A stretch of DNA of 64,000 nt from Escherichia phage RB14. The position numbers and the translations under genes were made by a program. Location: sequence record NC_012638.1; one strand, written 5' to 3'. Below the pieces are notes generated by a model. The model had not been told where the DNA came from and made no database searches. It worked only from the letters and a program-made list of their open reading frames with translations. Positions 7,631-62,622 of this stretch are shown piece after piece. How positions within the stretch are numbered: position 1 is the stretch's first letter; each line of letters begins with the position of its first letter.

Positions 7631-8101
7631 TTAATCATGTTTCCACACCCCATCGGTATTTGACCAAAGTCGCTGATTATCTGATCCTCGCCACAGCTTT
7701 TTGGTCGGAAGATTTTTCTCATACTTCCCATCAATAATAACATCAACATATTTAAGCATTTCTAGTTGTTTAATATCTTCAAACTTATATCCTGTCCACA
7801 ACCAAATGCTTTTATTGGGATAAAGATTTTTAATAGTTTGAACCACAGAGTGAATCACGTCTCTGTTATCAGGATAAAGAGGGTCTCCTCCAGTTATAGT
7901 TAATCCTTCTATATAATCATTATTCAAACATTCAATTAATTGTTCTAATGTTTCACCAGTGAATGGAATACCATTTCTAGCATTCCATGTTGATTTATTA
8001 TAACACCCTTCGCATTTATGCAAACATCCAGTAACAAAAAGAACGGTCCTGCACCCAGGACCATTAACAAAATCGCAAGGATAAAATCTATCATAATTCA
8101 T
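7631..8101 (-). CDS. nrdG: Anaerobic ribonucleotide reductase activating protein
   Basis: 156 aa; Cys cluster CLHKCEGC; directly downstream of nrdD. Confidence 0.9.
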   Translation of the reverse strand: MNYDRFYPCDFVNGPGCRTVLFVTGCLHKCEGCYNKSTWNARNGIPFTGETLEQLIECLNNDYIEGLTITGGDPLYPDNRDVIHSVVQTIKNLYPNKSIWLWTGYKFEDIKQLEMLKYVDVIIDGKYEKNLPTKKLWRGSDNQRLWSNTDGVWKHD

Positions 8102-9915
8102 TGGTGTTTAACCCTATGCATGATTTCTTTATTTTTACCGAGATTAAATCCGCGTTCGTTCGGATTTCCCAAATAACCACATGTTCTTCTTATTGTATTC
8201 ATCTTTTTAGGATCAGTTTCTCCACAAATAGAACAAACAAATCCGTTTTCAGTAGGAGTCATTTCATGGGTACTTCCACATGTAAAACATTTATCTACTG
8301 GCATATTAACACCAAAATAATCTAAATGTTGTGCGGCATAATCCCATACAGCCTCAAGACCTTTTAAGTTATTTTTCATATCAGGAAGTTCAACATAAGA
8401 AATGTGACCACCTGTCGCAATGAAATGATATGGCGCTTCACGAGAAATCTTTTCAAACGGAGTAACATTTTCTTCTACTGAAACATGGAAACTGTTAGTG
8501 TACCAGCCTTTATCAGTAACATCCTTTACACTTCCATATTTTTCTGTATCAAGTTTACAGAAGCGATAGCAAAGGTTTTCAGCAGGAGTAGAATACAAAC
8601 TAAAAGCAAACCCAGTTCTTTCAGTCCACTGTTTAAGATGAGCATTCATTTTAGTTAAAATTTCTCGTCCAATATCACGACCGACAAGAATATTCAATTC
8701 GTGAATACCAATGTATCCTAAAGACACTGAACTTCTACCGTTTTTAAATAACTCAATTATGTCGTCATCAGGTTTAAGACGAACCCCGAATGCACCTTCT
8801 TGGTAAAGAATAGGAGCAACAGTCGCTTTAACTCCTTTTAAGGAACTAATTCTGCACATCAAAGCTTCAAAACATAAATCCATTCGTTCATTGAACAATT
8901 CGATAAATTTCTGTTCATTGAACTGTGTTCCAATATAAGAATCTAATGCGATACGAGGAAGATTCAGTGTTACAACACCGAGATTATTACGTCCATCAAG
9001 AATTTCATTGCCAGTCGAATCTTTCCATACGCTCAAGAAACTACGACAACCCATTGGAGAAACAGGAATAGATGAGCCGGTGATAGCTTTATTGTTCTTA
9101 GCTGAAATAATATCAGGATACATCCTTTTGCTTGCGCACTCTAGAGCAAGCTGTTTAATATCATAGTTCGGATCGTCTTTATAAAGATTAACACCTTCTT
9201 CAACGAACATAACAAGCTTAGGGAAAATAGGAGTTATCCCATCACGACCAAGACCTTTAATACGATTTTTCAGAATTGCTTTCTGAATCATTCGTTCAGT
9301 CCAGTCAGTTCCCGTACCAAATGTAATTGTTACAAAAGGCGTTTGTCCGTTTGAACTAAAGAGAGTATTTACTTCATATTCATAAGCTTGGAATGCATCG
9401 TATACATCTTTTTCTGTTTTAGATTGAGCATAATTCAACGCATCAGCGATTTGCCATTTTTCTGCATCCTCAATATGTTTTGCATAGGTGCGTTTAACAT
9501 AAGGAGAAAGTACTTTATCTACATTAGCAAAAGTCGTTCCGCCGTATTGATGGGAAGCAACCTGTGCAGTAATTTGTGCCATAATTGCAGTAGCAACACC
9601 GATTGATTTAGGAGTTTCAATCTGTGCATTACCAAGCTTAAATCCGTTCTCAAGCATTCCTTTTAAATCTACTAAACAACAATTAGTAAATGGAAGAGCA
9701 GGGGAATAATCAATATCATGGAAATGAATAATTCCGCTTTCATGCGCTTTCATAATAAAAGACGGGACCATATTTTTGGCAATGTGTTTAGACACAATAC
9801 CAGCCATAAGGTCCCGTTGAGTTGGAAAAACACGAGAATCTTTATTAGCATTCTCGTTTAAAAGGTCTTTATTAGTTTTATGAATCAATCCTTCAATTTC
9901 TTTTTCAATTGTCAT
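8098..9915 (-). CDS. nrdD: Anaerobic ribonucleoside-triphosphate reductase
   Basis: 605 aa, uninterrupted; C-terminal glycyl-radical motif RRTCGYLG; Cys cluster CFTCGS...CSIC. Confidence 0.95.
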   Translation of the reverse strand: MTIEKEIEGLIHKTNKDLLNENANKDSRVFPTQRDLMAGIVSKHIAKNMVPSFIMKAHESGIIHFHDIDYSPALPFTNCCLVDLKGMLENGFKLGNAQIETPKSIGVATAIMAQITAQVASHQYGGTTFANVDKVLSPYVKRTYAKHIEDAEKWQIADALNYAQSKTEKDVYDAFQAYEYEVNTLFSSNGQTPFVTITFGTGTDWTERMIQKAILKNRIKGLGRDGITPIFPKLVMFVEEGVNLYKDDPNYDIKQLALECASKRMYPDIISAKNNKAITGSSIPVSPMGCRSFLSVWKDSTGNEILDGRNNLGVVTLNLPRIALDSYIGTQFNEQKFIELFNERMDLCFEALMCRISSLKGVKATVAPILYQEGAFGVRLKPDDDIIELFKNGRSSVSLGYIGIHELNILVGRDIGREILTKMNAHLKQWTERTGFAFSLYSTPAENLCYRFCKLDTEKYGSVKDVTDKGWYTNSFHVSVEENVTPFEKISREAPYHFIATGGHISYVELPDMKNNLKGLEAVWDYAAQHLDYFGVNMPVDKCFTCGSTHEMTPTENGFVCSICGETDPKKMNTIRRTCGYLGNPNERGFNLGKNKEIMHRVKHQ

Positions 9916-19767: not shown

Positions 19768-19797
19768 ATAGTACCATAAAGCTTTATGCTTGTAAAC
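19768..19797 (-). promoter_or_regulatory. Early promoter
   Basis: Minus strand GTTTACA-N17-TACTAT; leader ACAACTATCAACT...GGAGAATAAA. Confidence 0.6.
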
Positions 19798-19820
19798 CGT
19801 TTTGTGAAAAATTTTTGAAA

Positions 19821-19845
19821 TAAAAAAGGGAGCCCGAAGGCTCCC
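19821..19845 (-). terminator. Rho-independent terminator
   Basis: GGGAGCC-UUCG-GGCUCCC then UUUUUUA. Confidence 0.7.
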
Positions 19846-28783: not shown

Positions 28784-28961
28784 CTAAACGAATAGGTTCA
28801 TGAATGCCATATCCTTGAACAGAAATTTCTGTCGTAGGATAAATTCCATCAATATCACCCATATTCCAGGCTTCATTAAATTGCTGTTCGCCTGAATTAC
28901 TAAACCACTCGGCGAAAGCATTTAGCACATCTTTAGAACCTTCAATAATTATCTTTGCCAT
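28740..28961 (-). CDS. hypothetical protein (vs.x region)
   Basis: ORF track 73 aa. Confidence 0.45.
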   Translation of the reverse strand: MAKIIIEGSKDVLNAFAEWFSNSGEQQFNEAWNMGDIDGIYPTTEISVQGYGIHEPIRLVEYDLCTGEEVKYD

Positions 28962-29323
28962 TACAAACTCTCAGTAAAGGTACGAGCGATAACGTCGCGC
29001 TGCTGTTCCGGAGTCAGAGAGTTAAAGCGAACTGCATAACCGGATACACGGATGGTCAGCTGCGGATATTTTTCCGGATGCTTAACTGCATCTTCCAGAG
29101 TTTCACGACGCAGAACGTTAACGTTCAGGTGTTGACCACCTTCAATTTTAACTGTAGGTTGTTGCTCAATTTCAATTTCACGGGCATGCAAACCATAGAA
29201 AATTTCTGGGTCTACAAAAGAGTCCTCTTTAAAGGTTTTAGAGACAATAATTCGTGCTTGAATATCATCTTCAAAATAAATAGTACCTTTATGTGTGCCT
29301 TCAAGAATTTGATATGCTTTCAT
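28961..29323 (-). CDS. Autonomous glycyl-radical cofactor, GrcA/YfiD-like
   Basis: 120 aa; C-terminal [29 protein letters not shown] glycyl-radical motif; 3' half about 51 percent GC versus about 33 percent in 5' half. Confidence 0.85.
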
Positions 29324-29330
29324 ATAAACC

Positions 29331-29711
29331 TCAATTAGAAAATAAATTTATCCAAGATTGTTCTTTAATTAAAAATGGCTCAGAATCATATGCCATTAAA
29401 CTTTGGGTGATTAGTCCTTTAAAAGGTCCATCAATAAATTCCATGGTAAAATATGGAATTTTATTCATTAGCCGTGCATTAGGAGCAGTACACAAAACTC
29501 TGCATCCTTTGAATACGCCTTTTTGTAATTTGTATTGCTTGGGATAAAATTCGCTTAAAATGTTGTTATTTGCCAAAATTTCAAAATGATTTACCAATTT
29601 ATTTTTAATAGTTTTTGGCGAAAAATAGAGATATTCGAAAAGCTGCGTGTCTGTCATCATTGCATTCCGATTACGAAAAACTGCGGACGAGTAATACCAC
29701 CAATGCAACAT
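29331..29711 (-). CDS. hypothetical protein
   Basis: ORF track 126 aa. Confidence 0.45.
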
Positions 29712-30244
29712 TTACTATTACAGCAGTAGTGTACAGTGTCAATATGGACGCTATAAATCTTATCCATATCAGGAGATTTGACAGGCTCATCAATTATATA
29801 CAAAATTCGCGAAAGCGATAAACCTCTGAACTTGCTTCCTTTATTACCAATAAAACTGCGCACAGAATCAGTAAATAAACGAAAACGTATATCATCATTA
29901 GAATAACGCGAAAATTCCTTTTTAATGTTATTTGCAGAAATTTTAGCGTAAGCTGAAGTATTAGAAAGAACAATAACTGTTCCGCCATCATACAGCCAAT
30001 TAGCGGCAAAGTTAGTCACAGCAATTGATTTACCGGATTGACGTCCACCATCTATACGAAGTGTGCAGTACTGTTTAAGTAATTCTTCAAATGGCGGGAT
30101 ATATTCGTTTTTACAAATTTCTTCTACTCTAGCATCAGAATGGTGTGTAAAAGCATTCATCAGGGATAGATAAGGACCAGTTAAAAATGTTCTCATTTTA
30201 TTCTCTCTAAATTTGGGCCATTCCATGGCGCATGAATTGTCCAT
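29657..30244 (-). CDS. P-loop NTPase (terminase-ATPase-like Walker A)
   Basis: 195 aa; Walker A GGRQSGKS, Walker B ILYIIDEP; C-terminal Cys cluster CCNSKCC. Confidence 0.55.
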   Translation of the reverse strand: MDNSCAMEWPKFRENKMRTFLTGPYLSLMNAFTHHSDARVEEICKNEYIPPFEELLKQYCTLRIDGGRQSGKSIAVTNFAANWLYDGGTVIVLSNTSAYAKISANNIKKEFSRYSNDDIRFRLFTDSVRSFIGNKGSKFRGLSLSRILYIIDEPVKSPDMDKIYSVHIDTVHYCCNSKCCIGGITRPQFFVIGMQ

Positions 30245-30337
30245 TTCTGTATTTACCCATTACCGCACTCAGGCTCGACCTTATTACAGGTTGGCGGGAA
30301 TCCCTCATAGAATCATGAGGTCCAGGTTGTTCCCATA

Positions 30338-30811
30338 TTATTTGAACGATTTAACGTACTGAATAGAACCTTTACTATTCACAAAGGCAATTTTACCATT
30401 TTTGTTATACATGGTAGCAGTACGTTGATAGCCATAAGTTTGTTTACCAGATTGATAACCAACTAATGCAAAATTATCTTCACCCATTTTATTCTGTTTA
30501 GCACGAATGCGTTCATGGCCATGTGCCATAAGAACCTTAGCATCACCTGTTGCAATGGATCGACGAGTTTTTTCATCTTCAACTGTATTAACAAAGTCGT
30601 CAAATGAATCAAATTTAGCATGAGATTTATTATACAGTTTTCCATCTACTGCATAATTATATCCTTGTACATCCATCTCAACTTCTGTACCATCATCCAA
30701 TACAGCAGTGATTTTCTGTCCTTTTTTAAATTTCAAAAGATCAGTAAAAGATTCAGCAATAATTTGAGAATTAATAGCTGCTTCAGTAATAAATTCTTGA
30801 TATGTTTTCAT
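30338..30811 (-). CDS. Internal protein with capsid-targeting sequence (ipII/ipIII locus)
   Basis: 157 aa; N-terminal MKTYQEFITEAA matches the T-even CTS; adjacent to e. Confidence 0.65.
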   Translation of the reverse strand: MKTYQEFITEAAINSQIIAESFTDLLKFKKGQKITAVLDDGTEVEMDVQGYNYAVDGKLYNKSHAKFDSFDDFVNTVEDEKTRRSIATGDAKVLMAHGHERIRAKQNKMGEDNFALVGYQSGKQTYGYQRTATMYNKNGKIAFVNSKGSIQYVKSFK

Positions 30812-35662: not shown

Positions 35663-35744
35663 TTAAAATCCTTGAAATAATTTATTGGTTATTAATTATT
35701 TATCACGTTGTTATCATCCATGTTAGCATTCTCTGAGTGATTCA

Positions 35745-35775
35745 AACTAAAAAGCCCCAACCTTTCGGTCGGGGC
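35745..35775 (-). terminator. Rho-independent terminator at end of tRNA/stable-RNA cluster
   Basis: 9-bp stem GCCCCGACC/GGUUGGGGC with GAAA loop then UUUUUAGUUUG. Confidence 0.7.
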
Positions 35776-35824
35776 TAAGCCTTGCGGCAACCTTGTCGGG
35801 GTTCCACCTGCTAAGGCAAGTGTT

Positions 35825-35919
35825 TGTACGAAACGCCGGGATTCGAACCCGGTTATTAAGCAGTTGACGCTACTCAATATTTTTAAAAGGCCATATCTCG
35901 ACCATATCCGAACGTTCCG
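35825..35919 (-). ncRNA. tRNA-like small stable RNA candidate (T4 species 1/2 RNA position)
   Basis: 7-bp acceptor-like stem CGGAACG/CGTTTCG flanking a canonical T-arm CCGGG-TTCGAAT-CCCGG, but 60 nt between them with no standard D/anticodon arms; no CCA. Confidence 0.35.
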
Positions 35920-36092
35920 TCAAAAACGCTACTCGGCTTATGGCAAAGATATTTCCTCGAATCGATAATTCGGTGCGCCGTTTCTGCTGTGATATAAGGG
36001 GGCATTAACAAAACATAAAGATTTATTAATGCCAGTCCTTAAACAGGGAACATCAGTCCGACGACTTGCCGGTAGCGACCCGGCTTCTTGTC

Positions 36093-36168
36093 TGGTCGAG
36101 GCAGTAGGGATCGAACCTACGACCCAGGACTTAGAAGGTCCTTGCTCTTCCTTCTGAGCTATGCCTCG
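36093..36168 (-). tRNA. tRNA-Arg (anticodon UCU)
   Basis: Cloverleaf read by hand: acceptor CGAGGCA/TGCCTCG, anticodon loop CTTCTAA, T-loop TTCGATC, encoded CCA. Confidence 0.85.
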
Positions 36169-36172
36169 TATT

Positions 36173-36247
36173 TGGCGGACGTGATAGGATTCGAACCTAT
36201 AACCAATCGCTTAACAGGCGATCGCTCTGCCATTGAGCTACACATCC
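36173..36247 (-). tRNA. tRNA-Asn-like (anticodon GUU), atypical, possible pseudogene
   Basis: D-arm GCTC/GAGC, anticodon arm ATCGC-CTGTTAA-GCGAT, T-arm ATAGG-TTCGAAT-CCTAT, CCA; 5' acceptor strand looks 2 nt short. Confidence 0.45.
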
Positions 36248-36249
36248 AA

Positions 36250-36336
36250 ATTGGTGGGGAGTGATGGAGTCGAACCACCCGAGTCGCAATGACAATGAAT
36301 TTACAGTCCACACCGCTACCTCTACGGGATAACTCC
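36250..36336 (-). tRNA. tRNA-Tyr-like (anticodon GUA), class II with long variable arm
   Basis: Acceptor GGGGAGT/ACTCCCC, anticodon loop CTGTAAA, 15-nt variable arm, T-loop TTCGACT, CCA; D-arm atypical. Confidence 0.55.
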
Positions 36337-36347
36337 CCTAATTAATT

Positions 36348-36422
36348 TGGTGGCCCTGGGTGGAATTGAACCACCATCTGGCGATTATGAGTCGCTTGCT
36401 TGAACCTTCCAGCTACAGGGCC
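36348..36422 (-). tRNA. tRNA-Ile (anticodon CAU, T4 type)
   Basis: Acceptor GGCCCTG/CAGGGCC, anticodon loop CTCATAA, T-loop TTCAATT, CCA. Confidence 0.85.
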
Positions 36423-36423
36423 T

Positions 36424-36499
36424 TGGTGCTGATTGACGGAATCGAACCGCCGACCTTCTCATTACAAGTGAGTTGCTCTACCTACTGAGCTAAATCAGC
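36424..36499 (-). tRNA. tRNA-Thr (anticodon UGU)
   Basis: Acceptor GCTGATT/AATCAGC, anticodon loop CTTGTAA, T-loop TTCGATT, CCA. Confidence 0.88.
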
Positions 36500-36504
36500 A
36501 AAAC

Positions 36505-36594
36505 TGGCGGAGGCGATAGGATTTGAACCTATGAGTCGCCGGAGCGACTGCCGGTTTTCAAGACCGGTGCATTAAACCACTCTGCCACGCCTCC
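36505..36594 (-). tRNA. tRNA-Ser (anticodon UGA)
   Basis: 90 nt class II; acceptor GGAGGCG/CGCCTCC, anticodon loop CTTGAAA, long variable arm, CCA. Confidence 0.9.
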
Positions 36595-36596
36595 AG

Positions 36597-36668
36597 TCTC
36601 CATACAAGGATTTGAACCTTGGACCTCCTGATCCCAAATCAGGCGCTCTACCAAACTGAGCTACACGG
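36597..36668 (-). tRNA. tRNA-Pro (anticodon UGG), CCA not encoded
   Basis: Anticodon loop TTTGGGA, T-arm CAAGG-TTCAAAT-CCTTG; 3' end 2 nt from tRNA-Ser 5' end. Confidence 0.8.
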
Positions 36669-36678
36669 AGTAAATTAA

Positions 36679-36752
<74 letters not shown>

Positions 36753-36757
36753 GCAAA

Positions 36758-36844
36758 TTTGGTGCGAGAAGTGGGACTCGAACCCACAAGGAAATCATTC
36801 CGCAGCATTTTAAGTGCTGTGCCTTTACCAATTTGACCATTCTC
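36758..36844 (-). tRNA. tRNA-Leu (anticodon UAA)
   Basis: 87 nt class II; acceptor GCGAGAA/TTCTCGC, anticodon loop CTTAAAA, long variable arm, CCA. Confidence 0.88.
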
Positions 36845-36845
36845 G

Positions 36846-36918
36846 CGCTGGGAATAAAGGACTCGAACCTTTGCATCCTGGAATCAAAATCCAGTGCCTT
36901 ACCAACTTGGCTAATTCC
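36846..36918 (-). tRNA. tRNA-Gln (anticodon UUG), CCA not fully encoded
   Basis: Acceptor TGGGAAT/ATTCCCA, anticodon loop TTTTGAT, T-loop TTCGAGT; abuts tRNA-Leu. Confidence 0.85.
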
Positions 36919-37017
36919 CAATTATTAACAAAGGCTCTCTAACAAGAACCCTTGATGATAGAGGGTATTAATCAGTGCGGTATGAGTTAATAATAACAAA
37001 TAATTCTTAAAGCATAT

Positions 37018-59481: not shown

Positions 59482-62622
<3,141 letters not shown>

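Follow-up and report, generated by a model that had tools for sequence, protein, structure and literature searches.

PMC8683613, summarising Wagner et al. 2001, describes Escherichia coli YfiD and the ~14-kDa Y06I protein of bacteriophage T4 as being activated by the pyruvate formate-lyase-activating enzyme (PFL-AE) and as reactivating pyruvate formate-lyase (PFL) that has been cleaved by oxygen; it also speculates that some GrcA-like proteins may repair other glycyl-radical enzymes. For the psbA and psbD genes of cyanophages, intragenic recombination between host and phage, accompanied by a patchy %G+C, has been described (PMC1484495; Zeidner 2005; Sullivan 2006). The DNA analyzed here is a 64,000-nucleotide (nt) stretch of Escherichia phage RB14 (NC_012638.1), referred to as the window, which carries vs.6, a gene for a GrcA/YfiD homologue. 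Locations of vs.6 and its parts are given in window positions, and gene nucleotides are counted from the ATG. A 171-nt stretch of present-day E. coli sequence lies inside this gene, as it does inside ~645 T2/T4-like and Mosigvirus genomes, and a Klebsiella equivalent is found in the T4-like phages of Klebsiella. T-even phages destroy the DNA of their host and are not regarded as regular importers of host sequence.

The host-identical core of vs.6

The last 61 residues of the vs.6 product (E60 to L120) are identical to E. coli GrcA, in agreement with the initial annotation, which had described the C-terminal 60 or so codons as essentially those of the host protein. Immediately before them, K58 and I59 are conservative changes from the host R and V. 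At the nucleotide level, gene nt 179 to 363 are 98.4% identical to grcA in 5426 of 5426 complete E. coli genomes, and the core (nt 181 to 351) is identical to a common E. coli grcA allele at all 171 sites and at least 99% identical to grcA in 5156 of these genomes. The three mismatches found over nt 179 to 363 are all synonymous and all fall in the last three sense codons. No nucleotide match to the 5′ half was found in E. coli. A megablast search of the whole window against the E. coli genomes returned a match at positions 28957..29145, with host similarity stopping at the stop codon, and the core was the sole match besides those to plasmid tRNA genes and one of 52 nt. The latter (window 19779..19830) matches, at 96% identity, a site without annotation in only one of the 5426 genomes, that of strain BE104. 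Plasmid matches in the middle part of the window correspond to tRNA genes and have no relation to grcA.

The composition of the gene changes along its length. GC content is 32.6% and GC content at third codon positions (GC3) 18.6% over nt 1 to 178, compared with 48.1% and 42.6% over nt 179 to 363 and with 49.7% and 42% over the core, in a window whose overall GC content is 34.9%. The contrast reported in the initial annotation is therefore real, although its figure of 51% for the 3′ segment was slightly high. Windowed analysis likewise gave a composition that is far from uniform, since only 0.8% of all 171-nt windows are as GC-rich as the core, and these are confined to vs.6 or to positions 35703..36709. 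The latter region overlaps a cluster of 10 tRNA genes (Arg, Asn, Tyr, Met, Thr, Ser, Pro, Gly, Leu, and Gln) on the minus strand at 36093..36920, the Tyr/Thr part of which is 82 to 90% identical to tRNA genes carried by E. coli plasmids of ~93 to 100 kb. E. coli grcA has no internal composition step (GC3 of 42% in both halves), which makes the step a property of the phage gene. In the unconverted homologue of phage CC31, GC content rises from 34% in the 5′ half to 42% in the core and GC3 from 15% to 26%; about half of the GC rise is thus intrinsic to the domain, partly through its amino acid composition.

Both borders of the host tract lie within the open reading frame (ORF). On the 5′ side, the phage-type codons for K58 and I59 precede the tract, and alignment to E. 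coli grcA, a check suggested in the initial annotation, placed the junction at an identity step near gene nt 180. On the 3′ side, 9 nt separate the end of the tract from the stop codon and form a phage-type tail (GAG AGT YTR among phages), in which G354 and T357 are common to the window, to the unconverted phages L014 to L020 and to Mosigvirus, where the host has A and C. The 3′ flank of host grcA is absent beside vs.6 in the window. Because both junctions are intragenic and no host flank is present, we consider it very probable that the 3′ half represents a homologous patch replacement (gene conversion) by E. coli grcA inside an older phage homologue. Such replacement appears to be recurrent in related phages. 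In T4 (L163), codon 73 of an otherwise host-identical core carries a CGT-to-CAT change (R73H), and nt 354 is the host A.

In the mechanism that we propose, the radical-domain segment (nt 181 to 351) would have been overwritten by E. coli grcA through homologous recombination. The tract covers essentially the whole block over which the phage and host copies can still pair, and its limits coincide with the loss of similarity before codon 61 on one side and within the final three codons on the other. The donor would presumably be host DNA present during infection and handled by the phage recombination machinery, and a single-strand annealing or heteroduplex route would account for a tract that fills the whole homologous block.

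Probable recurrence in phages of E. coli and Klebsiella

Related loci were taken from phages in IMG/VR and GenBank. For the E. coli phages, a Tequatrovirus set (the window, T2, T4, and L003 to L006) was compared with a Mosigvirus set (L007, L008, SF, phi25-307, PTK, and MRostami-2023e). The two genera differ at 17 to 21 of 177 sites in the 5′ half of vs.6, including 12 to 13 of 59 third positions, and their flanking DNA is 65 to 85% identical, compared with 0 to 4 differences over the 171 sites of the core (Fisher P values for the 5′ half against the core from 5e-6 for the window and L008 to 8e-5 for the window and L165). Every core in both genera also lies within 0 to 4 differences of E. coli grcA. 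Genus-specific sites continue up to nt 170, 11 nt upstream of the tract, and begin again at nt 358/360, 7 to 9 nt downstream of it. The same contrast extends to the ~645 GenBank phage genomes with this type of vs.6 gene, in which the 5′ half is between 87.6 and 98.9% identical to the window and the 3′ half at least 96.8%, except for three records at 90 to 95%, of which the one inspected, RB55, has a deletion.

The phages of Klebsiella belonging to Jiaodavirus show an equivalent arrangement, with a GC3 of 60 to 67% in the core against 19 to 25% in the 5′ half and a phage-type tail from nt 339 to 345 on. A scan of bacterial genomes with E. coli GrcA returned 80 species, K. pneumoniae not among them, and against these the Jiaodavirus cores appeared only 88 to 93% host-like. 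Klebsiella grcA alleles were then obtained by scanning metagenome contigs (long gut contigs) for a 35-nt exact pattern, and the protein of the bacterial grcA genes recovered is exactly K. pneumoniae GrcA (GRCA_KLEP7). Over nt 181 to 336, the metagenomic Jiaodavirus-type contig L178 matches Klebsiella allele A at 156 of 156 nt, and phage PMBT63 matches allele B at 155 of 156 nt. These two types differ from each other at exactly the five sites that distinguish A from B (219, 225, 282, 294, and 306), with matching states. In other Jiaodavirus isolates the states are mixed or additional, and nt 339 is host-type in three of these isolates, suggesting that the tract does not always end at the same place. 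On this evidence, it is hard to avoid a minimum of two independent transfers from host to phage within Jiaodavirus. Conversion there changes residues to the host type (LLDAVEH vs LEDAVKH), and the Klebsiella-type residues may keep the phage protein matched to host PflA and PflB. Conversion could be either selected or a neutral by-product of homology.

One model accommodates both groups, namely that the core follows the allele pool of the host and not the genealogy of the phage. The E. coli phages would converge on one core because E. coli grcA is nearly monomorphic, and the cores of Klebsiella phages would differ because Klebsiella alleles are more diverse. Extending this, we think it probable, if with some reserve, that gene conversion from host to phage has a standing hotspot in Tevenvirinae, the radical-domain half of vs.6, where a ~170-nt pairing block would be overwritten at each host encounter, with perfect identity easing later conversions. 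The phage protein would thus be kept matched to the local host PFL system and would undergo concerted evolution with a gene on the chromosome of its prey.

The strongest competing explanation for the E. coli phages is a single host-to-phage conversion in one phage lineage, followed by spread between Tequatrovirus and Mosigvirus in mixed infections. T-even phages recombine freely, and all 13 sequenced examples have the same 5′ junction and also share G354 and T357, except for T4 (A354) and L006 (C357), which have the host state at those sites. E. coli alleles, moreover, give almost no power to separate donors. Against this explanation, genus-specific differences persist to within a few nucleotides of the tract on both sides, so that phage-to-phage spread needs crossovers placed almost exactly on the host junctions despite 177 nt of ~90% identity upstream; it is for this reason that separate host conversions in the two genera are favoured. 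Independent events are also demonstrated in Jiaodavirus. Finally, a common T/C polymorphism of E. coli grcA at the position of vs.6 nt 219 (alleles L206 and L208) is seen in both phage genera, with C in L005 and L164, one a Tequatrovirus and the other a Mosigvirus, which is weakly consistent, as a single site, with different E. coli donors. Taken together, a single conversion appears unlikely, and recurrent conversion from the host is our preferred interpretation.

Several considerations nonetheless weigh against a recurrent process. E. coli grcA is almost monomorphic, which leaves donors indistinguishable apart from the one shared polymorphism at nt 219, and a single conversion with later spread retains its modest share of probability there. 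The process is not universal, as RB16/RB43, ECD7-like, and T5-like coliphages keep unconverted cores. The Klebsiella sample comprised only nine distinct grcA alleles, of which A and B were compared site by site, and it is biased by the 35-nt exact pattern. Within Jiaodavirus, the core shows no excess divergence over the 3 kb around it (3.5% vs 2.4% for L168 and L169), so the case there rests on allele matching and not on rates. A rate argument built on four pairs with identical 5′ halves (P = 0.001 to 0.01) was dropped in view of this 3-kb background of 2.4%. The T5-like contigs (L045 to L068, 104 to 122 kb) encode a GrcA homologue of their own, of 127 amino acids (aa), whose core reaches no more than ~72 to 76% identity to the host alleles sampled, which places these phages among the coliphage lineages that escape conversion.

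The initial annotation had suggested that vs.6 is a chimera made by the capture of a host grcA 3′ segment. The host origin of the 3′ half stands; its fusion to unrelated sequence does not. A single illegitimate capture, in which a host 3′ fragment was joined to an unrelated phage ORF, would account for the sharp step in composition and identity near gene nt 180 and for the 17 to 20 N-terminal residues that cannot be aligned to GrcA. The N-terminal peptide family of vs.6, however, also occurs in Mosigvirus, in CC31/PG7-like Enterobacter phages (Karamvirus), in RB16/RB43 and KP15-like phages, in Jiaodavirus, and in RaK2-like jumbo phages, and the contigs L021 to L026 have intermediate N-termini. 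Genes of CC31/PG7-like, RB16/RB43, and KP15-like phages and of SonariX have the N-terminal half in common with vs.6 and are full-length, with a core that is not host-type, being at most 77 to 84% identical to any sampled host and low in GC3; for the CC31-like, RB16/RB43, and KP15-like groups, the comparison covered 81 bacterial grcA alleles, and GC3 was low to moderate. A full-length gene with a non-host core is present in at least five other phage groups, residues 18 to 60 of vs.6 align to the N-terminal region of GrcA, and the host tract gives way to the phage-type tail before the stop codon. Capture is accordingly very unlikely. Since sister groups carry the full-length gene with a non-host core and the N-terminal half aligns to GrcA, sequence comparison indicates that the arriving host sequence met a phage lineage already equipped with a complete but diverged homologue of grcA, as expected for conversion inside an existing gene.

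Gene context and predicted function of the vs.6 protein

The features of the locus are collected below.

Features of the vs.6 locus and of nrdD in the window
Feature	Position	Strand	Basis or remark
vs.6 coding sequence (CDS), 120 aa, 13.9 kDa, GrcA/YfiD homologue (T4 'Y06I' protein)	28961..29323	-	ORF with ATG start
Phage-type 5′ half, gene nt 1-180, codons 1-60, diverged GrcA N-terminal region	29144..29323	-	GC 32.6%, GC3 19%
Core, probably host-derived, gene nt 181-351, codons 61-117, glycyl-radical domain	28973..29143	-	171/171 nt identical to E. coli grcA
Phage-type tail, last three sense codons GAG AGT TTG	28964..28972	-	E. coli: GAA AGC CTG
Predicted radical Gly95 codon, motif RVSG95YAV	29039..29041	-	Motif alignment to GrcA (6OWR) and PflB C-terminus (1CM5/1H16)
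Shine-Dalgarno-like GAGG, 5 nt 5′ of the vs.6 ATG, overlapping the vs.7 stop codon	29329..29332	-	Sequence inspection
vs.7 ORF, directly upstream gene	29331..29711	-	ORF list
TAATG, vs.6 stop sharing one base with vs.5 start	28959..28963	-	Phage operon context, not host 3′ flank
nrdD, anaerobic ribonucleotide reductase	8098..9915	-	Pfam NRDD, 571 bits; considered outside the vs.6 feature

The gene belongs to a minus-strand T-even early cluster in the order nudE, e (lysozyme), ipIV, vs.7, vs.6, vs.5, vs.4, vs.3, regB, vs.1, vs, and tk.4, and its position between vs.7 and vs.5 is that of vs.6 in T4. The window gene is 99.2% identical in nucleotide sequence to vs.6 of T2, with two amino acid differences, and shares 117 of 120 residues (97.5%) with its T4 orthologue, in which the changes are D20G, Q54P, and R73H. 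RefSeq labels the T2 and T4 genes 'autonomous glycyl radical cofactor GrcA'. The window phage is a T2-like Tequatrovirus: the neighbours vs.7 and vs.5 are shared with T4, but denV and vs.8 are not. The interval between e and vs.6 (29331..30811) has the T2-type layout of ipIV, one ORF, and vs.7, without ipIII, ipII, denV, or vs.8 of T4. A scan for promoters and terminators around vs.6 gave no more matches than shuffled controls.

The vs.6 product matches the Pfam Gly_radical domain (PF01228) over residues 60 to 101 with 66.9 bits (cut-off of 22.2), and its residues 21 to 120 align to residues 27 to 127 of GrcA in Protein Data Bank (PDB) entry 6OWR (E = 1e-41), leaving residues 1 to 20 unaligned. 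In NCBIfam, residues 18 to 120 align to positions 23 to 126 of the 126-position profile TIGR04365; the score of 155.7 bits lies below the curated equivalog cut-off of 170 and speaks against full equivalence, a shortfall explained by the diverged N-terminus. An RVSGYAV motif is present near the C-terminus with its glycine at residue 95, and this glycine is the predicted radical-bearing residue because it lies in the conserved motif opposite the same motif of GrcA and PflB in the PDB alignments. The gene is a small stand-alone ORF bounded by vs.7 and vs.5, encodes no catalytic barrel, and has GrcA as its best relative among the PDB matches, followed by the last 63 residues of PflB. On the criteria of domain, motif, and size, assignment to the GrcA/YfiD family is secure at the sequence level. 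The identification of a GrcA-like glycyl-radical gene with a T4 homologue, made in the initial annotation, is thus borne out. Y06I itself most likely corresponds to vs.6, as vs.6 is the sole GrcA-annotated gene in T4 (NC_000866) positions 60000 to 67000 and its predicted 13.9 kDa fits the published size.

Compared with E. coli GrcA, the vs.6 protein is of similar size (120 vs 127 aa), has the same last 61 residues including RVSGYAV, and would follow the same proposed mechanism, in which activation by PFL-AE precedes replacement of the C-terminal domain of oxygen-cleaved PFL (PMC8683613). It differs by being seven residues shorter, by its strongly diverged N-terminal 60 residues, and by its location in the early cluster of a lytic phage, with a phage ribosome-binding site and overlapping stop and start codons. 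Compared with PflB (1H16 and 2PFL), its residues 58 to 120 are ~78% identical to residues 697 to 759, the C-terminal glycyl-radical domain that is the part thought to be replaced, but vs.6 is a stand-alone 14-kDa protein without the catalytic barrel. Given the 97.5% identity to the T4 orthologue, where the function has been shown, the window protein is a putative spare part for PFL. It would be expressed together with the adjacent early genes, and the host PFL-AE would place a radical on Gly95. The protein would then dock into host PFL cut by oxygen at the radical glycine of the enzyme, so that conversion of pyruvate into acetyl-CoA and formate would resume during infection under micro-oxic conditions. 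In RB55 (L170, KM607002), a 13-nt deletion at locus positions ~1560 to 1600 removes the radical-site G-Y-A-V codons and shifts the frame, and no vs.6 CDS is annotated. As this deletion crosses the radical glycine, it suggests that vs.6 is dispensable in laboratory culture.

A possible role in the phage NrdD system had been put forward in the initial annotation; as a rival reading, vs.6 would serve NrdD and not host PFL. Oxygen likewise cleaves NrdD, another glycyl-radical enzyme, whose gene lies in the window, the repair of other glycyl-radical enzymes is part of the speculation in PMC8683613 cited above, and in RaK2-like jumbo phages (L027, L028, and L030; 345 to 357 kb) a grcA-like gene lies ~40 to 900 nt 3′ of nrdD, which is the only hint from synteny. 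The core of vs.6, by contrast, is 100% identical to GrcA and close to the PflB C-terminus, no NrdD chain is found among the 33 PDB matches at E ≤ 0.001, and BLASTP of vs.6 against the window NrdD gave a nonsignificant E value of 2.7. In the window, nrdD lies 19 kb from vs.6, and the published activity of Y06I is on PFL (PMC8683613). We therefore regard this role as highly improbable and retain host PFL as the probable partner.

Direction of transfer and comparison with known systems

The direction of transfer is from host to phage, because the core resembles the remainder of the bacterial gene, and not the phage, in composition, because the differences between the two Klebsiella alleles are spread evenly over the full length of the gene (8 within the first 201 nt, 6 within the last 183), and because bacterial grcA occupies a constant ung-grcA-eamB locus, found in 5426 of 5426 E. 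coli genomes. The reverse, in which bacteria received the core from phages, has nothing specific in its favour beyond the two-way exchange proposed for cyanophage psbA (PMC1484495), and on the three observations above it is extremely unlikely. The absence of any transfer, with nucleotide identity arising from extreme purifying or codon selection on a domain whose core peptide hardly varies among Enterobacterales and many phages, can be dismissed as having a negligible chance, because RB16-type phages encode the identical core peptide at 83% nucleotide identity to E. coli, so that protein conservation does not account for the match, bacterial species with identical peptides differ at 10 to 20% of core sites, and Jiaodavirus cores match Klebsiella and not E. 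coli. An assembly artefact is ruled out by the hundreds of independent phage genomes. One IMG/VR contig of 19 kb classed as viral, L031, encodes a fully bacterial-type GrcA (MITGIQITKASNEALL...) with a core matching a Yersinia allele at 167 of 183 nt; it was set aside as a phage example, being probably bacterial DNA or a misclassified contig.

The gene and the biochemical role of vs.6 were already known. A host-identical patch in vs.6/grcA or in enteric T-even phages was not found described in the searchable full-text literature, although an earlier mention is possible in subscription-only papers, including the T4 genome review; within that literature, the host-tracking mosaic looks undescribed. 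The patch offers a natural, sequence-readable marker for the frequency and route of recombination between lytic phages and the host chromosome, which is directly testable. If the hotspot is real, it would be a measurable natural case of lytic T-even phages taking host chromosomal DNA by homology and of tracking the host by conversion and not by mutation. In practical terms, the vs.6 core is ill suited to phage phylogeny and may serve as a record of recent host species, and short reads from it will be misassigned between phage and host.

The closest described parallel is that of cyanophage psbA and psbD, in which a phage copy of a host metabolic gene, with patchy %G+C, exchanges segments with the host in T4-like myoviruses. 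As in psbA-type mosaics, vs.6 has a segment of host identity flanked by phage-type sequence in one ORF, a pre-existing phage homologue, and different donors that can be traced, here through Jiaodavirus alleles A and B. Cores are of the E. coli type in Tequatrovirus and Mosigvirus and of the Klebsiella type in Jiaodavirus, and the first two genera probably acquired theirs independently. Unlike the psbA and psbD cases, the vs.6 tract occupies the entire region of homology as a single block and is 100% identical to a current host allele, the phages that carry it are enteric T-even phages, which degrade host DNA, and its events can be assigned to specific host alleles. The vs.6 mosaic is thus a known type of pattern in an unusually clean form, with one block, perfect identity to a living host allele, and donors identifiable by allele.

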